Of a stretch of DNA of 64,000 nt, positions 28,664 through 38,598 are shown one piece after another. The translations under genes were made by a program, and so were the position numbers. The number at the start of each line of letters is the position of its first letter. Positions within the stretch are counted from its first letter, which is position 1. The DNA is from Cladosporium halotolerans (lineage: Eukaryota). The stretch spans positions 496,001 to 560,000 of the forward strand of contig NW_027191454.1 of assembly GCF_011745625.1 (NCBI RefSeq). The letters are read 5' to 3'. The notes beneath the pieces are model-generated. The model made no database searches. It was given only the letters and a program-made list of their open reading frames with translations, and was not told the DNA's origin.

Positions 28664-29268
28664 TCATTTGGGCGTGCCCTCACCAATGTCCTCGTACCTG
28701 CATCGATCAGTCAGGCGGCGAAAATTCAATACATCAAAGATACACGTATCACCTACCAGTCTTCGGGGTGCTTGCGAATAAACTCGTTCATGAGATCCTC
28801 GCACTCTTGATTTTCAACGTTGACAACCTCGATGCCGCGCTGCTTGAGGTACGATTCGCCACCGACAAAGGTCTTGTTCTCGCCTAAGACGACACGCTTG
28901 ACCTTGTAGAGGATACACGCGCCCGTGCACATGTCACAAGGTGAAAGGGTGGTGTACATGGTGGCACCCTTGTAGGCTGAGGCCGGCAGGCGGCCAGCGT
29001 TCTCTAGAGCTGAGATCTCTGCCTGGTGGAAATGTCAGAAATTCCGCGATAGAAAGGTAGGCGACCGTGCCATATCGAAGGAAAATGAGCACAGGGGAGA
29101 AAATACATGGATGGTCGGGCTATCCTTCTGCATGCGCATGTTGTGGCCCTTTCCCAAGATCTTGCCATCTGCAGACACCAAGCATGCTCCGATGGGCACG
29201 CCACCCTCACTAGCACCCTTCTTGGCCTCCTCGAGAGCGGCTTTGAAACCTTCGTCTGCGGTGGACAT
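28664..29268 (-). CDS. FCY1: Cytosine deaminase
   Basis: EGGVPIGACL...GHN; H|AE motif across intron 29023-29106; LSPCDMC zinc motif; W|YEDIGE across intron 28698-28756. Confidence 0.95.
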
Positions 29269-29994
29269 CTTGTGAACCTGTCTTGTTGGTTGAAGTTTAG
29301 CGAATATATCTTCAGAGGCGAATCTGTGACGCTTTGCCGCAAACTGATAATGGGTTATGATAGGTGACCGACGAGAAAGTTTGTCGGCATGTGGAGTCCG
29401 ACCGACCGAGCATCGGCCCAGGTACAACTCGAACTTGACTCGTCGCGCATTTCACGAGACGGGAGAGCTCAAATCTTGCTGTGAAGCACTCTTTGCTCAG
29501 ATCTAGTAGTTGCCATCTACCACAGATAAGCCTCACTCCATTGATAATATGCATTCACGTGAAACAGCGCCGATTCAATTCTGATATCCATCGTCGCTCG
29601 CCATTCTCGCGCGTCTGTACCTTTCCCGGCCATGACGTTGGTCCCTGGTACTCGGGTAACCTGTCTCATCTGGCCCCTGCCGGTTATTGAGCAGCTCTTG
29701 CTCGGTCTCTACACACCTCTATGCTGCCATTCGCATCGTGCACCCCTCGCATGATCACCACCATCTTTCTCTCATCCCATCTTTACATCGTGTCAACATC
29801 CGCGAGTGAAATGTCGGCTTAGCCACGCGTCGAACGCGAACCTTTGTCGTCAGGAAAAGTCGCATTCTTGCACGCGCGAACCGTGGGGCTGGACGAGATC
29901 TGATCGCATACCGAGATCAGACGGCGATACCGATTTGCACCGCGCCTGATCCCTAGCGTTTGTTGGAGTGCGGACTTGTGCACGATTTGCGGTT

Positions 29995-32900
29995 ATGGAT
30001 CCAGGACACCGCGGGTGGGCACAGCCCGGGAACGCACATGGGCCCGGTGCTGAGCAGGGCCAGTCGCAAAGGCCAGGAGCATCGTTTGGGTATGTCCCTT
30101 TTTCCACAACCAGCCTCTCAAATGTCTTTGGAAGATATCGCATCCAACGGACCGCGTTCGCGCAACGGTCATGCGGATTGAAGATGCTGCTCTCCAGACT
30201 CAACATTCCCCACCACCACTCTGAGATGACCATGTCTCCCACGCTTCTATCTCCGGCTAACAGCAGCTTCCATAGTCCCCAACATCCAACACAGCAATCT
30301 CCGCCTGCTGGACATGCAGGCCTGCCCCCGCCCAGTGGTCATTTTGCTTACCAGCAGCCCTCACACGGTCTCGGGGGCATGAACCAGTCTTCTCCCAGAC
30401 AGCCCCCACCCTCTGCCCACCGACCTGAAGGCCCGCAAGGTCCGAATTTCCCGCTGCCCACCCTCAGTCAAGCCACTGGCCAGGCATCGGCTGCGGACCG
30501 TGAGAGAGCCCGCGAGGTTGAGCAAATTCACATCAAAGAAGAGCAAGATAGGCAGCACAGGGAGCAAGAGCGTCAGAGACTGGAACAAGCGCCCCAGCAT
30601 CAAGCCCAAGGTCAGCCCATGCACCTGCACCAACCCGTCGCTGTAGGGCCGCGCACTATCCATGGGCCAAATGGTTTGCTTGGAAATCCGGGCCTCACAG
30701 GGCCACAATCGCAGTCGCAATTTCCACTTGGCGGTCCAGGAGGGCCAGGCAGTATGTTTGGCGGAGCTCCTGTTCAATCCGCTCAGGCTCAAAGTCAGCA
30801 AAACCCTTCAGCTCTGCTCATGCCGTTCGCTCCAGCTCAGGCGCAGGCGGCGCAACAGCAACAGATGGCTCAAGGTCAAGGTCAAGGGCAGGGCCAAGGC
30901 CAAGGCCAAGGACAGCAGCCTATCCTCAATGACGCTCTCAGCTACCTCGATCAGGTGAAGGTCCAGTTCGCTGATCATCCGGACGTGTACAACCGCTTCC
31001 TTGATATCATGAAGGACTTTAAGAGTGGCGCTATTGATACTCCCGGAGTAATTGGCAGGGTTAGCCAACTTTTTGCCGGCAATCCAGAGCTGATCCAGGG
31101 ATTTAACACTTTCTTGCCACCAGGATATCGGATCGAGTGCGGCGCCGGTGACGACCCGAACGCTATCAGAGTCACGACTCCCATGGGCACGACCGTGCAA
31201 TCAATGCCTCAACCACGACCTCTCAGCCGACAGGAAGGTGGTGAAAGCATGAGGCGGGCCAATGGCACATATACCCCTCAGCCAAATCAAGGCGCTCAGA
31301 TCATGATGAGTCCCAGTGGGCGTGCCGTTGGCCCAGCTATGCCTGGTTCTCACATCTCCCCCATGGAGGCTGCCCGGCAGCAAGAGCAGCAGGCTATGCA
31401 CCAACAGCAGGAGCGCGGCGTGAACCAGCTCCAAAACGCAGTGTCTGCGGCGACTGGTGGTGCCAACATGCGTGCTGCAATGTCTCCAGCTCCGGGCCGC
31501 GGAACCCCTGGTCAAGACGGCATGGCAGACGGCCACGGCATGGAGAAGCGAGGTCCTGTCGAGTTCAACCATGCGATCAGTTACGTTAACAAAATTAAGG
31601 TAAGCGTTCTGCGTCGCGAGGGTCCAGCTCCAGAAGTACTAATGGATACAATCAGAACCGCTTTGCGACGCAACCCGACATTTACAAGCAGTTCCTCGAG
31701 ATCCTGCAGACGTACCAGCGCGAGTCAAAGCCCATTCAGGACGTTTACGGCCAGGTCACCCACCTCTTCAAGACCGCGCCCGACCTTCTCGGAGACTTCA
31801 AGCAGTTCCTGCCAGAATCTGCTGCAGCTGCAAAGGCGCAGGCGCAAGCCAGGCAGCAGGCGGAGGAGCAGGCGATGATGTCCAATGTCCGTGGTGAGCC
31901 GATGTACGCAAGTCCTGTGATGTCGAAGGAGGTGGGCATGGGCACGCCCAGCCATAGGACGGGTCTGCCTCCCGTTGGCAATTTTGCGCCGACGCCGGTT
32001 GTCAAGGATAACAAGCGAAAGAGGGGCGAGAGACAAGGGACTGCCGGCAGTGCTGCTGACGGTGCCCCTGCGCCAGCAAACGGTAAAGGCCAGTATCCTG
32101 GACCTGGTGGAAAGGTAAGTCAAAAGCAATTCGATGTCTTTCTGAGGTTGAAGGCAGTAGCGACCGAAGGCAGTAGCGACCATGTGACTTCACGGCATGA
32201 GCTCACGGCACTAGCCGTGTCGCGCTTGCCCATCCAAAATGTTGCTTGCATTTGAACAATGAACACAAACACTGACTCTTTGATCAGCGCATGAAACAGG
32301 CACACACCATGGCTCAAAAGAACGACCAACCACCGGCCTCGCCGACACTTATTCCGGCCCTACCAGCTCCTATTCCTCCCACGACATCATCCGCGGCATC
32401 GAGTGAAGAGCTGAGTTTCTTTGACCGCGCGAAGAAAGCCATCAGCAACAAGAATACCTTCAATGAGTTCCTGAAGCTCTGCAATCTCTTCAGCCAAGAC
32501 CTTGTCGACCGCACCGTCCTCGTTCACCGCGCGCGCTCCTTCATCGGCTCCAACCCGGAGCTCATGAAGTGGTTTCAAGATTTTGTCGGCTACGATGAGA
32601 AGGACGTGATTGTGGAGAACAAGGCTCGCATTCCTGGCGGGCGCGTGAGTCTGAGCAATTGCCGCGGTCTTGGTCCCAGCTACCGGCTGCTTCCTAAACG
32701 GGTACGTCAAGTTTTCTCTTTACTTTTGCTTGTTAACGCGCGATTTTTCCTCCCATCGGTTTCGTGAAGTGAGGTTAGCCGGCTGGAGTCGCCAGCCACC
32801 AACTTTTTGGCTTGGCGTCGTCCAATCGCACGCCAGCTTAACCTCACCTCACGGCCCACTTTTGCTTGTTCTCCTCTTCCCTTCTGCCTCTACACATTGC

Positions 32901-35746
32901 GATCTTTCTTCTGGAGCAGCCAGTATTTGCGCAACATTCTCTTTTCAACTTTCGATATCGATGCACATCTGGATATGGCGTCAACGATGAAAGCAAAGTC
33001 GGTGCCGGCACCGATTAGCCTTCCCCAGGCTGGTCCTGGGAACAAGAGTGCCATCATCTCCCCAGGGCGACCTTCTCCGCCTCGCTCTGGACGCGACTAC
33101 CCTTCGTCGCGTTTCTTCGACTGGAGCGCCGAGCGTGGGGGAGTCTCGCCTGGGCCGCCAACGAGATCGCTGGACGATCTCCTATCGCAGCCCAAGGCGA
33201 CGACTCCCCCATTGAGGCGCAGTCGACGAGGACGAGATGGTCTTACGGACTCGGCCGTTTCGACGCTGCTGGCACCTGGACACGCGAGGCTTTCAGGACA
33301 TCGCTATTTCAACATTTCAAACGCAATCTCTTTTCTTCGCGCTGTACCTGCAGAACACCAGGATATTTCGGTCATCAATGGGGAAGTGAGGGCTAACGAT
33401 AGATTTTTTGTTGCGTTACAGGAACGACAGAAGACTTGCAGCGGCCGCGACGAGCTCTGCAACTCTGTTCTGAACGATGAATGGGCGTCCCACCCGACTT
33501 GGGCTAGCGAAGACTCCGGCTTTATCGCTCATAAGAAGAACCTCCATGAGGAAGGCCTCCACCGCATTGAAGAAGAGCGCCACGATTATGACTACAACAT
33601 CGAGGCGTGCAGCCGCACTATCCAACTCCTTGAGCCTCTCGCCCAGCAGCTTCGCCGCTTATCCGAGCAGGAGCAACTGGCCTACAAGCTGCCGCCGGGT
33701 CTCGGTGGGCAGAGCGAAACCATCTACAAGCGCGTGATCATGAAGGTATACAGCCGCGACAAGGGTCAAGAAGTTATCCAGCAACTTCATCTCCGCCCGT
33801 ACCAGGTTATCCCGGTCTTGCTCAACCGCCTGAAGGAGCGCCTTGAGACCTGGAAGCTGGCGCAGCGTGAGTGGGAGAAGGTGTGGCGCGAGCAGACTCA
33901 GAGGATGTTCTGGAAGTCGCTCGACCATCAATTCGTCAACACCAGACAAGTCGATAAGCGAGCCGTTCAAATGAAGGTGCTTCAAGCCGAGATTCAGATG
34001 AAGCACGAGGAAATGAAGAGAGAGGACAAGTCAATCCCTGGCACCATGCACCGACCGCAGCTTGAGTACACACTTGAGGACACCGACGTGATTCTGGATC
34101 TGTCGCACCTCTTCCTCGTGTACATTGATCAGACAATGTCGACGGATACGCCTCGCCTTTTCCCTTTCGTCAAGGAGTTCATCCCTCTCTTTTTCGGCCT
34201 GGACATCGACTGGTTCAATAATCAAATGAACGCAAGACTCAGCGCCACCGAGACTTCGGCCAACGAGGTCGGAGACGACTACCCTTCCGGTGCAGAAGAT
34301 TCGACTCCTTCTCGAGGCCGCAAGCCGAAAAGCAACAATTTGCTTCGCAGCGCTCTGGACCGCGGCCGTGGCAGGCCCGGCCGCAAGGATCGTGAAGACA
34401 GCAACGCTTCAAACAGCCGCGCATCCACTCCTGACGTGGCATCTAATGCCGACGACGAGATGGCAGTTGATACTGCTGAAGAGAGCGACGTTAAGCAAGA
34501 GAACGCCACCACTCGCTGGCTCGACCATCCCGCTGCGGGTAATATCCTTGGCGATAAATCGGTCGACCCAGGAGAGCAGTACGTACGCCAAACGTTCCGC
34601 ATGTGGTCTAACACTCCAATGTACGGCTTCATGAGGATGTTCATCATGCTCTACGAGCGTTTGCTCAAGCTCAAGCTTGGCGAGAACGAGTGCCGTGAGA
34701 CGGTCAAGAAGGCCAAGACGCAGAAGCCAGCCGTCGAGTTGGGCATCGTGGATAAGCAACCGCATGAGTTCTTCGACGACATCTCGCCGAACGCCAACTA
34801 CTACCGCCAGATGCTTGACAAGTTCGTCAGGTGCTTCACTGGCGAGATCGATTTCGCTGATGTCGAGGACACTCTGCGTCGTTTCTACCTACAGTCTGGG
34901 TACCAGCTCTACTCGCTCGACAAGATCGTCCAGCAGCTTTCGCGCTTCGCCTCCAACGTGCTCAATAGTGAGGGCAAGGACAAGAGTTTCGACATCTACC
35001 AACTGTTCAAGCGCGACCGTTCCAAGGAGACTACGACGGCGCAGCAACAGACCGATTACAGAAAATCGGTCGAAAAGATGCTCAAGGACGGAGAGCTGTA
35101 CCGGATTGACTACGTATGTGTCTATTTTCCATGTTCGGATCTCTTAACAGTCAAACTAACAAGTGCATAGGATCAGGATCAGCATCAAGTCAGATTTTAC
35201 CTGACCAAGAAAGACGACCCGACCTTTGACGACTCCCTTTCCTCAGCGGACAAGGAACACCTCTGGCGCTACTACCTTGCGTCGTTCACTGGCATGACGC
35301 AAACTGAGGGCGTCACGTCCGGTGCCCTTACCCGACCCATGCTCGCCCGTAGTGTTCGCGCTACCGGCGTGAATCCAAACTCGGTGTCCTACCCACCCTC
35401 TCCAGCCGACGGCGATGAGTCCACGAACGAGCGCCTACAGCGCCGCTTTGACAACATCCGTGGCAAGGAGAATCTGGTCATGCGCATCGCTGTCAACAAC
35501 TACCAGCGCATCTTCCAGCCCGGCACTGAGGAGGGTTGGATTGAGATTACCAACGAACGCGAGGGCAACAAAGAAGATGTTTCTGAGGTCGCTGAAGCCT
35601 TTGAGCGCAGGAACGATGACGCCAAGGACAAGTGGGAGAGGAACCACCCTAGTATGAGGAATGTCTCTGCCGACGACGTCGAAAAGGCGAAAGAGGGCTT
35701 CCAAAAGGTGGTCAGCGGCGATGCAGACGATATGGATATCGAGTGA
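29995..35746 (+). CDS. SIN3: Sin3 transcriptional co-repressor (PAH1-3, HDAC-interaction domain, Sin3a_C)
   Basis: PAH1 [16 protein letters not shown]2 [16 protein letters not shown]3 [36 protein letters not shown]...[11 protein letters not shown]. Introns 30090-30266, 31600-31655, 32115-32287, 32702-33421 and 35114-35170. Confidence 0.95.
30871..30915 (+). repeat. Coding (CARGGN)n repeat encoding (QG)7 just before PAH1 of Sin3
   Basis: caaggtcaaggtcaagggcagggccaaggccaaggccaaggacag. Confidence 0.9.
32150..32181. repeat. Perfect 2 x 16-bp tandem duplication inside SIN3 intron 3
   Basis: gaaggcagtagcgacc twice. Confidence 0.95.
32975..33421 (+). other. Putative alternative first (or cassette) coding exon inside SIN3 intron 4
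   Basis: ATG-led 149 codons ([17 protein letters not shown]...[29 protein letters not shown]...) in frame with the downstream HID exon. Confidence 0.6.
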
Positions 35747-36698
35747 TGACCTTACACGGTTTTGGGGTGACGAGAATGGACACATGATGGGTTTTATGCG
35801 TTGCGGCTTTTGGGAGTTCTTGCTTTCACTGACATGGCTCTGGACCGGACCGAAAGGGTAATGGCGTTTGCGGTGATCGGGTGATACCACTCTAGGCTTG
35901 CTCTGGTCGCTCACTTTGTGGGCCTCGACCGAGTTATTTGCTTACCGCTGTCTGTCTCTGTACCTATAGCTAGCTGTTTGTTTGGAATTGAATGCTTCCT
36001 TCACTGCCTCAAATTGAAATAGCTCCATGGGATTTCCATCCGACGACCGCGTGGCAGCGTCTGCTAGGCTGTCTGGTTGTTCTAGACTCAACGGACAGTC
36101 TCTCTAACCGCGGATCTTCAGCCGGGGATGTTGAAACAAGCCTCCGCGATCGAGGCTTGCCAGCATCCGGTCCAAGTTTCAAATCTGCACCGACCGGGCT
36201 GGATGCAGGGGTGCATCTGGCGAGATTTCGTTCGCTCCCGCGCTACATCCAACAACCCGACTTCACGACTTTATTACACCCACATGTTTGCAGCCATCAC
36301 GGTGGCTTTTCCTGAATCTTCTGCATAACCTGCAGACACGTGCGTTGATGGCGGATGATGACGAGAAAAAGTGTCGTCGTCACTATTGGCATTTGGCCGC
36401 AAGGATTTTCTACCTGAAACACGATGTGCCGCCATGTGGGACGGAGAACTGGAGAGCCTTGCGCCTTTCATTTCCTTCCGACCTGTTCATGCCGTTGAAT
36501 CCGGATCTGACGTAGACCACCGTCTTGACCATAGGTATAAAACTCATGGTCAGTCGTGACCAAAACGGGGCAAGCTACACCATCTTTTCCGTTCGTACTC
36601 TCCCTCTCTTGCCCATCTTTCCAGGACGCAGAGCCAGTCTCTATCCGTTCCACTCATTCGAAGACATTGAAAGCAGGCCTGTCAAATCGAAAATCACG

Positions 36699-37397
36699 AT
36701 GTTTCTCCAAAGCGCTCTCCCTATCCTAGCCGCAGTCGGCACAGCTTTCGCCGCCGCGATCCCCACTCAGACTCCGAACGAGAACCACCTAGCTCGTCGC
36801 GCCGTCTCTGGTCACTCCACGTTCTACGGTGGCAATGTTCAAGGAGGCACTTGTTCCTTCTCAACCTACAAGATCCCATCGGGTCTCTACGGCACCGCTT
36901 TCAGCGGCCAGGCTTGGGACAACGCCGCCAACTGTGGTGGTTGCGTCAAGGTCACGCACGGAGGCAAGAGCATCACCGCAATGATCGTCGACAAGTGCCC
37001 AGAGTGCGACGAAGGTCACCCCGACCTCTTCTCCGACGCCTTTGCTGCCCTCGCCAACCCTTCGGACGGAATCATCGACACCAGCTACGAGTTCATGTCC
37101 TGCCCCAAGGTCTCCGGCCCGCTCACCATCCACACCAAGTCCGGCGTGTCGCCCTACTGGTTTTCTGCCCAGGTGGTCAATGCCAACCGCCGCACTTCGA
37201 AGCTGGAGGTCTCTACCGATGGCAACTCGTGGACCGAAGCGAAGCGAACCGAGTACAACTTCTTCGAAATCTCTAGCGGAGTCGGTGCTGATTCGGCTTC
37301 GATTCGCGTCACGAGTGAAGACGGCGCATCGGTGGTTGTCAAGGATGTTTTGATGAAGGCTGACGTTAGCACTGACGCCTCTGGCAACTACAAGTAA
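36699..37397 (+). CDS. Secreted expansin-like protein (DPBB + CBM63; EXLX1/EglD-like)
   Basis: Signal MFLQSALPILAAVGTAFA. Motifs STFYGG...GGTCSF, ANCGGC, MIVDKCPEC, HPDLF, SPYWFSAQV and RTEYNFF. Confidence 0.9.
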   Translation: MFLQSALPILAAVGTAFAAAIPTQTPNENHLARRAVSGHSTFYGGNVQGGTCSFSTYKIPSGLYGTAFSGQAWDNAANCGGCVKVTHGGKSITAMIVDKCPECDEGHPDLFSDAFAALANPSDGIIDTSYEFMSCPKVSGPLTIHTKSGVSPYWFSAQVVNANRRTSKLEVSTDGNSWTEAKRTEYNFFEISSGVGADSASIRVTSEDGASVVVKDVLMKADVSTDASGNYK

Positions 37398-37540: not shown

Positions 37541-38101
37541 TCACTCTGCCATCGCTTTCTTCTCGGGCCCCGCCCACTTTACCTCGTACACTGGGATGCC
37601 TTCATGCTTGCCTTCCCAACTTTGCCTGTGCAAGCCGAAACCCTGCGCTTCCGGCTTAGGGATGCGAGGGAACATTCCCATTTTCAAGACAATTTTTCCT
37701 GGGTACGCTGCTGTCTCTGACTTGACCGGGCTGTTCGATTGTCAGTCACGCCTTGATGAGAAATTCTTATCGTCGACGCTGAACACATACTTTCCATCCT
37801 TCGAACAAAAGTAACGAAAGACACTGTTTCCACTACCCGTAGCTTTGTCGTCGTAGTACTTCAGCGTTCCGTCGCGGTCATCAATCTTGACGTCTTCGGC
37901 AGGGAGGAGCATGTTCGAAGCAATGTAGCTGCCCGCCACTTTGCGGCAGTTGGCGCAAGAGCAAAGATGACCCTTCGGGTTGGCGAAGATGTCCTTCGCG
38001 AGAATCGTCACTTGGATGCTGCCGCAGAGACAGCTGCCAGTCATGCCATTGGCAAACATGGCAGGATCGTGTTGTTTGGGGTCTCCTGTGAGTTCAGGCA
38101 T
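37541..38101 (-). CDS. GFA/CENP-V (Mss4-like) zinc-binding protein
   Basis: GSCLCG, HLCSCANCRK and RYFC. Intron 37731-37790; exon 2 PVKSET...HRQSWE...AE*. Confidence 0.88.
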
Positions 38102-38598
38102 GTTGTTGAATTCGTGACGATGATGAATTTCTGAGGAAGTTATTGACCTAACGTTCGCGCCTGGCCCACATGTAGATCAAGTGAATCGCGTTAAGTAGCA
38201 CAGGCCAGAGGTAGTTATTATCGTCGGTGAACGTGACAGAAACGAAAGAAAGGCAATACAATGCGCATTGCGTAAGTGGATCTAGATCGTCCATCATCTC
38301 CGCACTCTTCCCTTTGAGCGATAGCCGACGGCTGTTCAATTTATGTCACAAGAGCTCGTGCTGTAAGTTTTGCTGATATCGATTTTTTGGAGCATGCTAT
38401 CAACTGACCAGGCGACGAATAAACCAAATGATCACCCTGAATCACTCTATTAGATCTGACCTCCATCCATTTTGTATTGCTGTGCTGTCGCAGCAAGTGA
38501 CTGACGACACTTACCCCAACCCTAACCCTATCTACCTTACGAAGCTTCATGCAAGCTCCAGATCGCCTTCGCCAAATTGCGGGGAAGGCTTTAGGCGA

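Follow-up and report, generated by a model that had tools for sequence, protein, structure and literature searches.

A coding frame conserved inside a long SIN3 intron of Cladosporium halotolerans points to a probable short Sin3 without PAH domains

The SIN3 gene of Cladosporium halotolerans lies on the forward strand of a 64,000-nt stretch of contig NW_027191454.1 (positions 496,001 to 560,000; hereafter the window, with coordinates counted from its first letter) and contains a 720-nt intron with an open reading frame (ORF) that runs without a stop into the next exon. From comparison with relatives, this gene probably also makes a short Sin3, in which the deacetylase-binding half of the protein is kept and the transcription-factor-binding half is lost. 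As judged by the same comparison, the intronic ORF is under protein-coding constraint in the relatives, and we consider it very likely that it is translated in some mRNA. The full model, namely an unannotated alternative first exon that is transcribed from an intronic promoter and yields a Sin3 without PAH domains, goes further and is, in our view, likely. Rpd3/HDAC1-type deacetylase complexes are built around Sin3 as their central scaffold. If the model is true, a single gene re-partitions deacetylase activity in a new way, with the enzyme lobe kept and the PAH platform dropped.

The host gene is a Sin3 orthologue (Sin3 co-repressor scaffold) by its Pfam content, namely: three PAH repeats (PF02671; E 6e-19, 1e-15 and 6e-14); Sin3_corepress, the histone deacetylase (HDAC)-interaction domain or HID (PF08295; E 2e-34); and two matches to Sin3a_C (PF16879; E 4e-53 and 3e-14). 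The exons that flank the long intron are called exon 4 and exon 5, a numbering taken from an earlier reading of this DNA made without database searches (the sequence-only reading). Exon 4 (32286-32701, +) encodes PAH3 and the first residues of the HID, ending ...LLPKR, and its limits are given by joints in RNA contigs (32112>32286 and 32700>33421). Exon 5 (33422-35110, +; 3' limit approximate) begins with ERQKTC..., encodes the remaining HID and most of Sin3a_C, and would be common to both proposed isoforms. The site of the long intron is between these two peptides, inside the HID, and the first residue of exon 5 corresponds to position 13 of the Pfam Sin3_corepress profile. The basic KRKRGE stretch is present in canonical exon 3.

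The intron (32702-33421, +) is a canonical spliceosomal intron of phase 0, GTACGT...CTAAC...TTACAG, and the two other RNA-confirmed introns of the gene measure 56 and 173 nt. That it splits the start of the HID, as the sequence-only reading had it, is confirmed by the sequence, by Pfam and by RNA joints that skip 720 nt in X15, X16 and X5. These are three of the four RNA runs used here (X15, X16, X17 and X5, over 31400-34000), all of which are available as assembled contigs, which cannot show RNA ends and may drop rare forms. Read in the Sin3 frame, the 240 codons of the intron contain a single stop, TGA 32765-32767 (+; codon 22), the sole stop in the exon-4 frame, which would end any retained-intron product 21 codons past exon 4. 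From 32768 to 35170, i.e. into exon 5, the frame is stop-free. Within it, ATG 32975 begins the proposed alternative coding first exon (32975-33421, +), with 149 codons that are stop-free into exon 5; the branch site CTAAC (33393-33397) and the canonical acceptor are both inside this ORF. A CT-rich tract, read from the sequence, lies 5' of the ATG (32855-32952, +) and may have a start-site role. An in-frame CAG is found at 32921-32923 and a GTGAGG at 33386. The sequence-only reading had placed the single TGA, the open frame after it, the ATG with its 149 codons, the CT-rich tract, the CAG and the GTGAGG at these same positions.

Among 5000 first-order Markov copies of the intron, 0.6% have the Sin3 frame open for at least 218 codons, and 2% have at least one of the six frames open that far. 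The open frame of the window by itself is only moderately unusual, and the window alone is a weak finding with regard to chance level, codon usage and database matches; the coding case therefore rests on the relatives.

The relatives are 80 Sin3 loci (59-96% identity), found by scanning metagenome contigs with residues 1-173 of exon 5. In each locus, tblastn was used to place the end of exon 4, and 76 of the 80 gave a match. Seven of these 76 have a long GT..AG intron at the exact site, namely: L002 (715 nt); L004 (630 nt); L006 (818 nt); L012 (899 nt); L023 (888 nt); and L003 and L005 (799 nt each), which are near-identical loci. In L001 and L016 the contig ends within such an intron, 722 or 822 nt 5' of exon 5, and exon 4 is not reached; L001 is taken to be genomic because a downstream intron is kept. 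Together with the window, L001, L002, L003, L004, L006, L012, L016 and L023 make up nine distinct lineages, which form the basis of the comparison.

In all nine lineages, the frame of exon 5 is open a long way back from the acceptor: 218 codons in the window, 240 in L001 (to the contig end), 169 in L002, 233 in L003, 105 in L004, 248 in L006, 189 in L012, 226 in L016 and 180 in L023. The remaining two frames extend for 2-15 codons before a stop, apart from one of 43 codons (L012) and one of 155 codons (L004). The Markov P for the open frame is 0.0003-0.034 per lineage, and a Fisher combination over the three peptide groups that cannot be aligned with one another gives 2e-5. It should be noted that the 155-codon frame of L004 (575-1204) is a second open frame in that locus and extends back from close to the acceptor.

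In the exon-4 frame, the long introns contain 1-9 stops, and the first of these is found anywhere from codon 10 to codon 116. Intron length modulo 3 is 0, 1, 1, 0, 2, 2 and 0 in the window, L002, L003, L004, L006, L012 and L023, respectively. These values bear on readthrough or editing of the single TGA, raised in the sequence-only reading as a more speculative option; a full-length Sin3 carrying a 240-aa insert would result. The features that suggest it, a length that is a multiple of 3 and a single stop, occur in the window only, whereas the relatives vary in both respects; in addition, there is no codon periodicity between the TGA and the ATG. Readthrough or editing is refuted as a conserved mechanism, and we give it next to no credence.

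Each of the nine open frames contains an ATG, which would give 98-222 intron-encoded residues. The start context is also shared, with a purine at -3 in nine of nine lineages (A in eight) and a G at +4 in seven of nine. Upstream of these starts, ATGs in any frame are depleted over the nine lineages, 13 being seen vs 30.2 expected by composition (Poisson P 0.0004), and within the ORF parts 52 are seen vs 52.7 expected. The nearest upstream ATG is 186-498 nt off in six lineages.

The same ORF might instead be reached by splicing, through an alternative 3' splice site or as a cassette (e.g. CAG 32921-32923 joined onto exon 4), with full-length Sin3 carrying an insert of ~166 aa at the start of the HID as the product. 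Coding constraint on the ORF is also explained in this way; the window has a pyrimidine-rich tract and then an in-frame CAG, and three lineages (the window, L003 and L006) have a frame that is open well 5' of the ATG. However, L002, L004 and L012 have no in-frame AG from the upstream stop to the ATG (gaps of 22, 7 and 10 codons, respectively), so an acceptor fed from exon 4 is unavailable for the conserved Met region in these three lineages. The invariant first Met, the A at -3 and the missing upstream ATGs are also left unexplained. For a cassette, the intron from GTGAGG 33386 would be 36 nt long, which is judged too short for an intron, and its CTAAC branch site starts 7 nt from the donor. 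Finally, the junctions 32701-32924 and 33385-33422 named in the sequence-only reading, or any other joint from exon 4 to the inside of the intron, are absent among the contigs of the four RNA runs, with the caveat that contigs may drop rare forms. A cassette insertion into the HID is thus disfavoured, and we regard splicing into the ORF as unlikely.

The pattern of nucleotide differences also indicates that the intronic ORF is coding. Differences were counted pairwise by codon position on a nucleotide alignment that was built blind to frame. At positions 1/2/3 they amount to.46/.41/.59 in the ORF and.26/.33/.59 in its conserved motif, and in the 273 nt 5' of the ATG to.43/.42/.42. Upon column shuffling, the third-position excess was matched in 0 of 5000 for the ORF, and the upstream part gave a P of 0.55. 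At one position of the conserved motif, the Arg codons CGC, CGG and AGA are aligned, as judged by eye. Gaps with a length that is a multiple of 3 make up 3 of 3 in each of the two best-aligned pairs and 1 of 7 in the non-coding 5' part of the L002-L006 alignment. The open frame has been preserved through insertions and deletions.

At the peptide level, the window, L001-L004 and L006 form one group (group A) with an invariant first Met. Its motif reads roughly SPPRSG-D-P-S, followed after a few residues by ERGG-SP, and there is a second block near the C-terminus. L001 carries both the SPPRSG motif and the basic stretch found in L004, and L004 is placed with group A for this reason. In the L004 ORF itself, the region of the SPPRSG motif is missing and the basic stretch is present as in L001. 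The peptides of L016 and L023 are 54% identical, with their last 50 residues strongly conserved and ending LLPQFFPFPN...KLQ. The branch site and the acceptor overlap the codons for the final residues (A-N-D/E ... L-Q), so splicing signals account for part of the C-terminal residue conservation; the mid-ORF motif is not so explained.

These results can be compared with what is expected of an ordinary long intron, in which the frame is open by chance or as a by-product of conserved non-coding elements and the intron RNA is unspliced precursor. Such an intron would show no codon-usage signal, no protein relatives and little RNA, all of which holds here (intron RNA is ~4%, see below). It could also be missing in most relatives and have a 5' part that is conserved without being coding, as is the case. 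It does not account, however, for a frame that is open in nine of nine lineages and is always that of exon 5, for a third-position excess in the ORF that the upstream flank does not share, for the synonymous Arg codons in the motif or for the conserved ATG context. We therefore hold an ordinary intron to be improbable.

As for the RNA, a 5043-nt contig of X15 has the joints 31597>31654 (56 nt), 32112>32286 (173 nt) and 32700>33421 (720 nt, GT..AG). A 180-nt contig of X16 has the same 720-nt joint, which in X5 is found at a word depth of 264.6. Full-length Sin3, the first of the forms foreseen in the sequence-only reading, is borne out by these contigs, all of which join 32701 to 33422. X5 also has a 778-nt contig (32673-33450) that spans the entire intron and ~29 nt of each flanking exon at a depth of 11.4 (~4%), and it has no contig through the 56- or 173-nt introns. 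This contig covers the whole of 32924-33421, RNA of which had been anticipated, although a precursor would look alike. The sole contig of X17, an oligo-dT library, covers 33361-33733 at a depth of 2.3 and is unspliced across the acceptor. Full removal of the intron is the main fate, and a minor intron-containing RNA exists. The upstream and downstream contigs of X5 have depths of 290 and 377, respectively; this difference was discarded as evidence, as each contig has only one mean depth.

A contig across both intron borders is also what regulated intron retention would produce. Translation would then stop at TGA 32765 and give a Sin3 with PAH1-3 only, which, as in the case of mouse SIN3B(293), would bind transcription factors without binding the deacetylase. 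All relatives have an early stop in the exon-4 frame, and the isoform section of a review (PMC5902990) describes a mammalian PAH-only SIN3B form. Retention leaves unexplained the conserved ORF in the other frame, however, and neither the position of the stop (codon 10 to 116) nor the tail peptide is conserved. In addition, the premature stop is far 5' of later introns, and an mRNA of this kind is likely to be degraded. The PAH1-3-only form proposed in the sequence-only reading thus has an RNA that contains the whole intron on its side, at ~4% depth, and the relatives show no sign of selection for it. We consider retention as the explanation of this locus very improbable; a PAH-only retention form could nevertheless coexist with the internal-start form.

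In the model that we favour, the locus would consist of two nested transcription units. The main mRNA, without the 720-nt intron, would encode full-length Sin3 (PAH1-3, HID and Sin3a_C). A second mRNA, minor or condition-specific, would start inside the intron, probably 3' of conserved blocks near 32740-32830, and would stay unspliced at the canonical acceptor because the transcript has no 5' splice site upstream of it. Translation would begin at ATG 32975 and proceed through 149 intron-encoded codons directly into exon 5, with the branch site and the acceptor being read as A-N-D ... L-Q. The predicted product of ~900 aa would have a new N-terminus, the HID minus its first 12 Pfam positions, and Sin3a_C. 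Its N-terminus would be S/P-rich and basic, and is probably mostly disordered with short motifs. Basic runs are present in most of the extensions and may restore nuclear import. It is this internally initiated, PAH-less form, among those suggested in the sequence-only reading, that gains comparative support from the open frame, the ATG context, the third positions and the ATG-poor leader.

The 5' part of the intron (32702-32974, +) is non-coding and partly conserved, and we propose it as promoter and 5' leader, in agreement with its ATG depletion. Nucleotide blocks common to L002-L006 and L012 fall in the first ~150 nt of the intron (32735-32830 in the window), namely: TATTGTCGCG; CTATTGT; GTGA-GTGAGGTT; and TTGGCTTGGCGCCG. 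The blocks are conserved but not codon-periodic, and we regard them as candidate elements of a promoter or of other regulation; they may resemble HMG-box sites.

The functional consequences can be considered by analogy with S. pombe. In the portions of the SIN3L/SIN3S structural study that concern us here (PMC10115800), the HID stabilises the deacetylase and a C-terminal conserved region (HCR) binds Prw1, HID and HCR form a lobe with the deacetylase and Prw1, PAH3 binds Rxt2, and PAH1-3 bind Cph1/Cph2. PAH1/2 are given as docking sites for transcription factors in the review excerpted above (PMC5902990). Since the S. pombe HID and HCR hold the enzyme and Prw1 and the PAHs hold the others, deacetylase and WD40 subunit should remain bound to the short form, which should thus still form the enzyme lobe, and the PAH surfaces for scaffold subunits and transcription factors should be gone. 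Such a protein could serve as an HDAC module with different targeting, or as a competitor. A broader and more tentative proposal, which we offer as a real possibility without leaning on it, is that a filamentous ascomycete clade kept, over a long period of divergence, a fast-evolving alternative first exon that gives a 'lobe-only' Sin3, consisting of the HID and the C-terminal region with its own basic nuclear-targeting stretch and short conserved motifs, and devoid of PAH domains. Such a Sin3 would be a third Rpd3-type deacetylase module; alternatively, it would be a regulated decoy, drawing deacetylase away from transcription-factor-recruited complexes. Sister lineages would have lost it through repeated loss of the intron.

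Several observations weigh against the proposed isoform. To begin with the sequence of the ORF, its codon usage in the window lacks a coding signal, with GC fractions of.56/.56/.55 at codon positions 1/2/3 vs.63/.42/.66 in the Sin3 exons and a log-likelihood per codon of -0.13 vs +0.40 for exon 5. The 149-aa segment has no match in Pfam and no usable match in the ESM Atlas, the 218-aa open frame gave 0 matches by phmmer against 1.84 billion representatives, and two word-indexed searches of a 5.8-billion-cluster collection with the segment, one for longer and the other for near-length candidates, gave none at E<=0.001. The three peptide groups are not significantly alignable (hhalign E 0.48 and 0.088). 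Frame and peptide are conserved in the orthologous SIN3 introns of metagenomic relatives with dN/dS below 1, in line with the sequence-only reading, and the Nei-Gojobori (NG86) values are 0.17 for L016-L023 and 0.25-0.70 in group A; dS is saturated in these comparisons, however, and the peptide-guided alignment pushes dN/dS down. Among the more diverged pairs, gaps with a length divisible by 3 are not in excess, a comparison that is uninformative at ~50% nucleotide identity. The window also has an out-of-frame ATG at 32961-32963, 14 nt 5' of the start, which opens a 9-codon overlapping upstream ORF. In the X5 strain, this only upstream ATG of the window is abolished by T>C at 32962, and the same strain has five variants in the ORF, of which three are synonymous and the others are I>V and H>D.

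Protein modelling, RNA and distribution raise further objections of the same kind. With AlphaFold2 (27-row alignment), residues 1-100 of the short form have a predicted local distance difference test (pLDDT) score of 39-51 and only one 4-residue helix. Residues 101-150 (pLDDT 51-68) form, with low confidence, a short helix and a hairpin that adjoin the HID. The HID helices, from about residue 200, reach 80-96, and the mean is 64. In X5, RNA with the intron reaches only ~4% of the depth of spliced RNA and could be pre-mRNA. The contigs of X15 and X16 give no cover inside the intron; as contigs drop rare forms, this is not evidence of absence. The internal start site, the translation and the product are predictions from sequence. 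A very stable hairpin (33122-33231) lies inside the window ORF. Lastly, 67 loci are without the intron, including genomic close relatives such as L008-L011; with this absence and the patchy presence within the clade described below, the isoform must be dispensable in many lineages.

The 67 loci comprise 66 of the 76 with an exon-4 match and, in addition, L043, which is without such a match but has the exon-4 peptide directly upstream. A short intron is present at the site in L027 and L029 (89 nt) and in L074 (55 nt), and L039 has no upstream sequence. Most of the intron-less loci are judged to be genomic because they keep the PAH2 intron. That intron is also missing in 13 of them (L007, L013, L019-L021, L028, L032, L037, L044, L055, L057, L061 and L075), which may be cDNA or intron-poor lineages. 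L061 is genomic, being on a 666-kb contig, and L007 shares 94-96% identity with the window and has the appearance of spliced RNA from a close relative. In a maximum-likelihood tree of 48 distinct rows (8 rows were left out for an in-frame stop within the extracted stretch), all long-intron rows belong to a single well-supported clade of 20 rows, in which their distribution is patchy. L002-L006 and L012 group with the window in this tree, and L023 is apart among intron-less lineages. The simplest reading that this suggests is an ancestral intron that would have been lost several times. With regard to an introner-like or repeat origin, there is no further copy of the intron in the 64-kb window or in the 80 loci. 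An intron-hosted small RNA (snoRNA and similar) was considered as well and finds no support in Rfam, a scan of 32500-33600 having given 0 matches at E up to 1.

Known Sin3 isoforms offer partial parallels. SIN3 exists as one protein in budding yeast and as three paralogues in fission yeast, as C-terminal splice variants in Drosophila and, in the mouse, with a PAH1-2-only form, SIN3B(293); section 4 of the review, which is devoted to isoforms, does not include a form without PAH domains among those it gives (PMC5902990). Mouse SIN3B(293)/SIN3B-SF is alike in that one gene gives both a full scaffold and a truncated form, which separates the targeting and deacetylase-binding halves, and is unlike in that it keeps PAH1-2 and loses the HID, by alternative splicing, as described in the same section (PMC5902990). 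The proposed fungal form would be its mirror image, with the HID and the C-terminal region kept, the PAHs lost, and an internal promoter. The Drosophila forms SIN3 187/190/220 are likewise single-gene isoforms with isoform-specific terminal peptides; in contrast, they differ at the C-terminus by splicing and all keep PAH1-3 and the HID, according to that section (PMC5902990). In S. pombe, Pst1, Pst2 and Pst3 (SIN3L, SIN3S) show that differing Sin3 scaffolds build differing deacetylase complexes; these are, however, separate genes that keep all PAHs in the account given by the portions cited above (PMC10115800), whereas here one gene would give a form from which the PAHs are gone. Full-text literature searches, as judged by titles and the starts of abstracts, found no fungal Sin3 isoform without PAH domains.

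In other genes, removal of an N-terminal targeting region through an intronic promoter is well known, and a Sin3 without PAH domains would be a variant of this arrangement. The short TET1 isoform reportedly uses an intronic promoter, drops an N-terminal targeting region and gains a short unique start, and delta-133 p53 is said to be an intronic-promoter isoform without the N-terminal targeting region. Both differ from the present case, being other proteins from other kingdoms, and the internal start proposed here is deduced from sequence. The present case also indicates that fungal gene models can hide conserved coding first exons within long introns; predicted-protein collections were searched without a match to the segment.

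Two hairpins were found in the intron. The first (32763-32856, +; inverted repeat I1) encloses the TGA with 15-nt arms at 32763-32777 and 32839-32853 and is stable, with a minimum free energy (MFE) of -49.6 kcal/mol (z -5.87). L002-L006 keep the sequence of its 5' arm and have no clear 3' arm, and in L012 a similar sequence folds as well (z -2.9). The second, already mentioned, is specific to the window and lies in the ORF just past the conserved motif (33122-33231, +; 110 nt; MFE -65.7 kcal/mol, z -5.6). No 110-nt segment of the intron folds as stably in the group A relatives, where the best z scores are -1.1 to -2.7. A recent inverted duplication may have created this hairpin and rewritten that part of the peptide. 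Our explanation is not built on the hairpins, given that L002-L006 do not clearly conserve the first and that the second is without a group A counterpart.

The neighbourhood of SIN3 in the window contains an intron-split gene of the cytidine/deoxycytidylate deaminase fold (28753-29451, -), a gene for an expansin-like protein with DPBB and Expansin_C domains (36516-37397, +) and a gene for a GFA-family protein (37742-38176, -).

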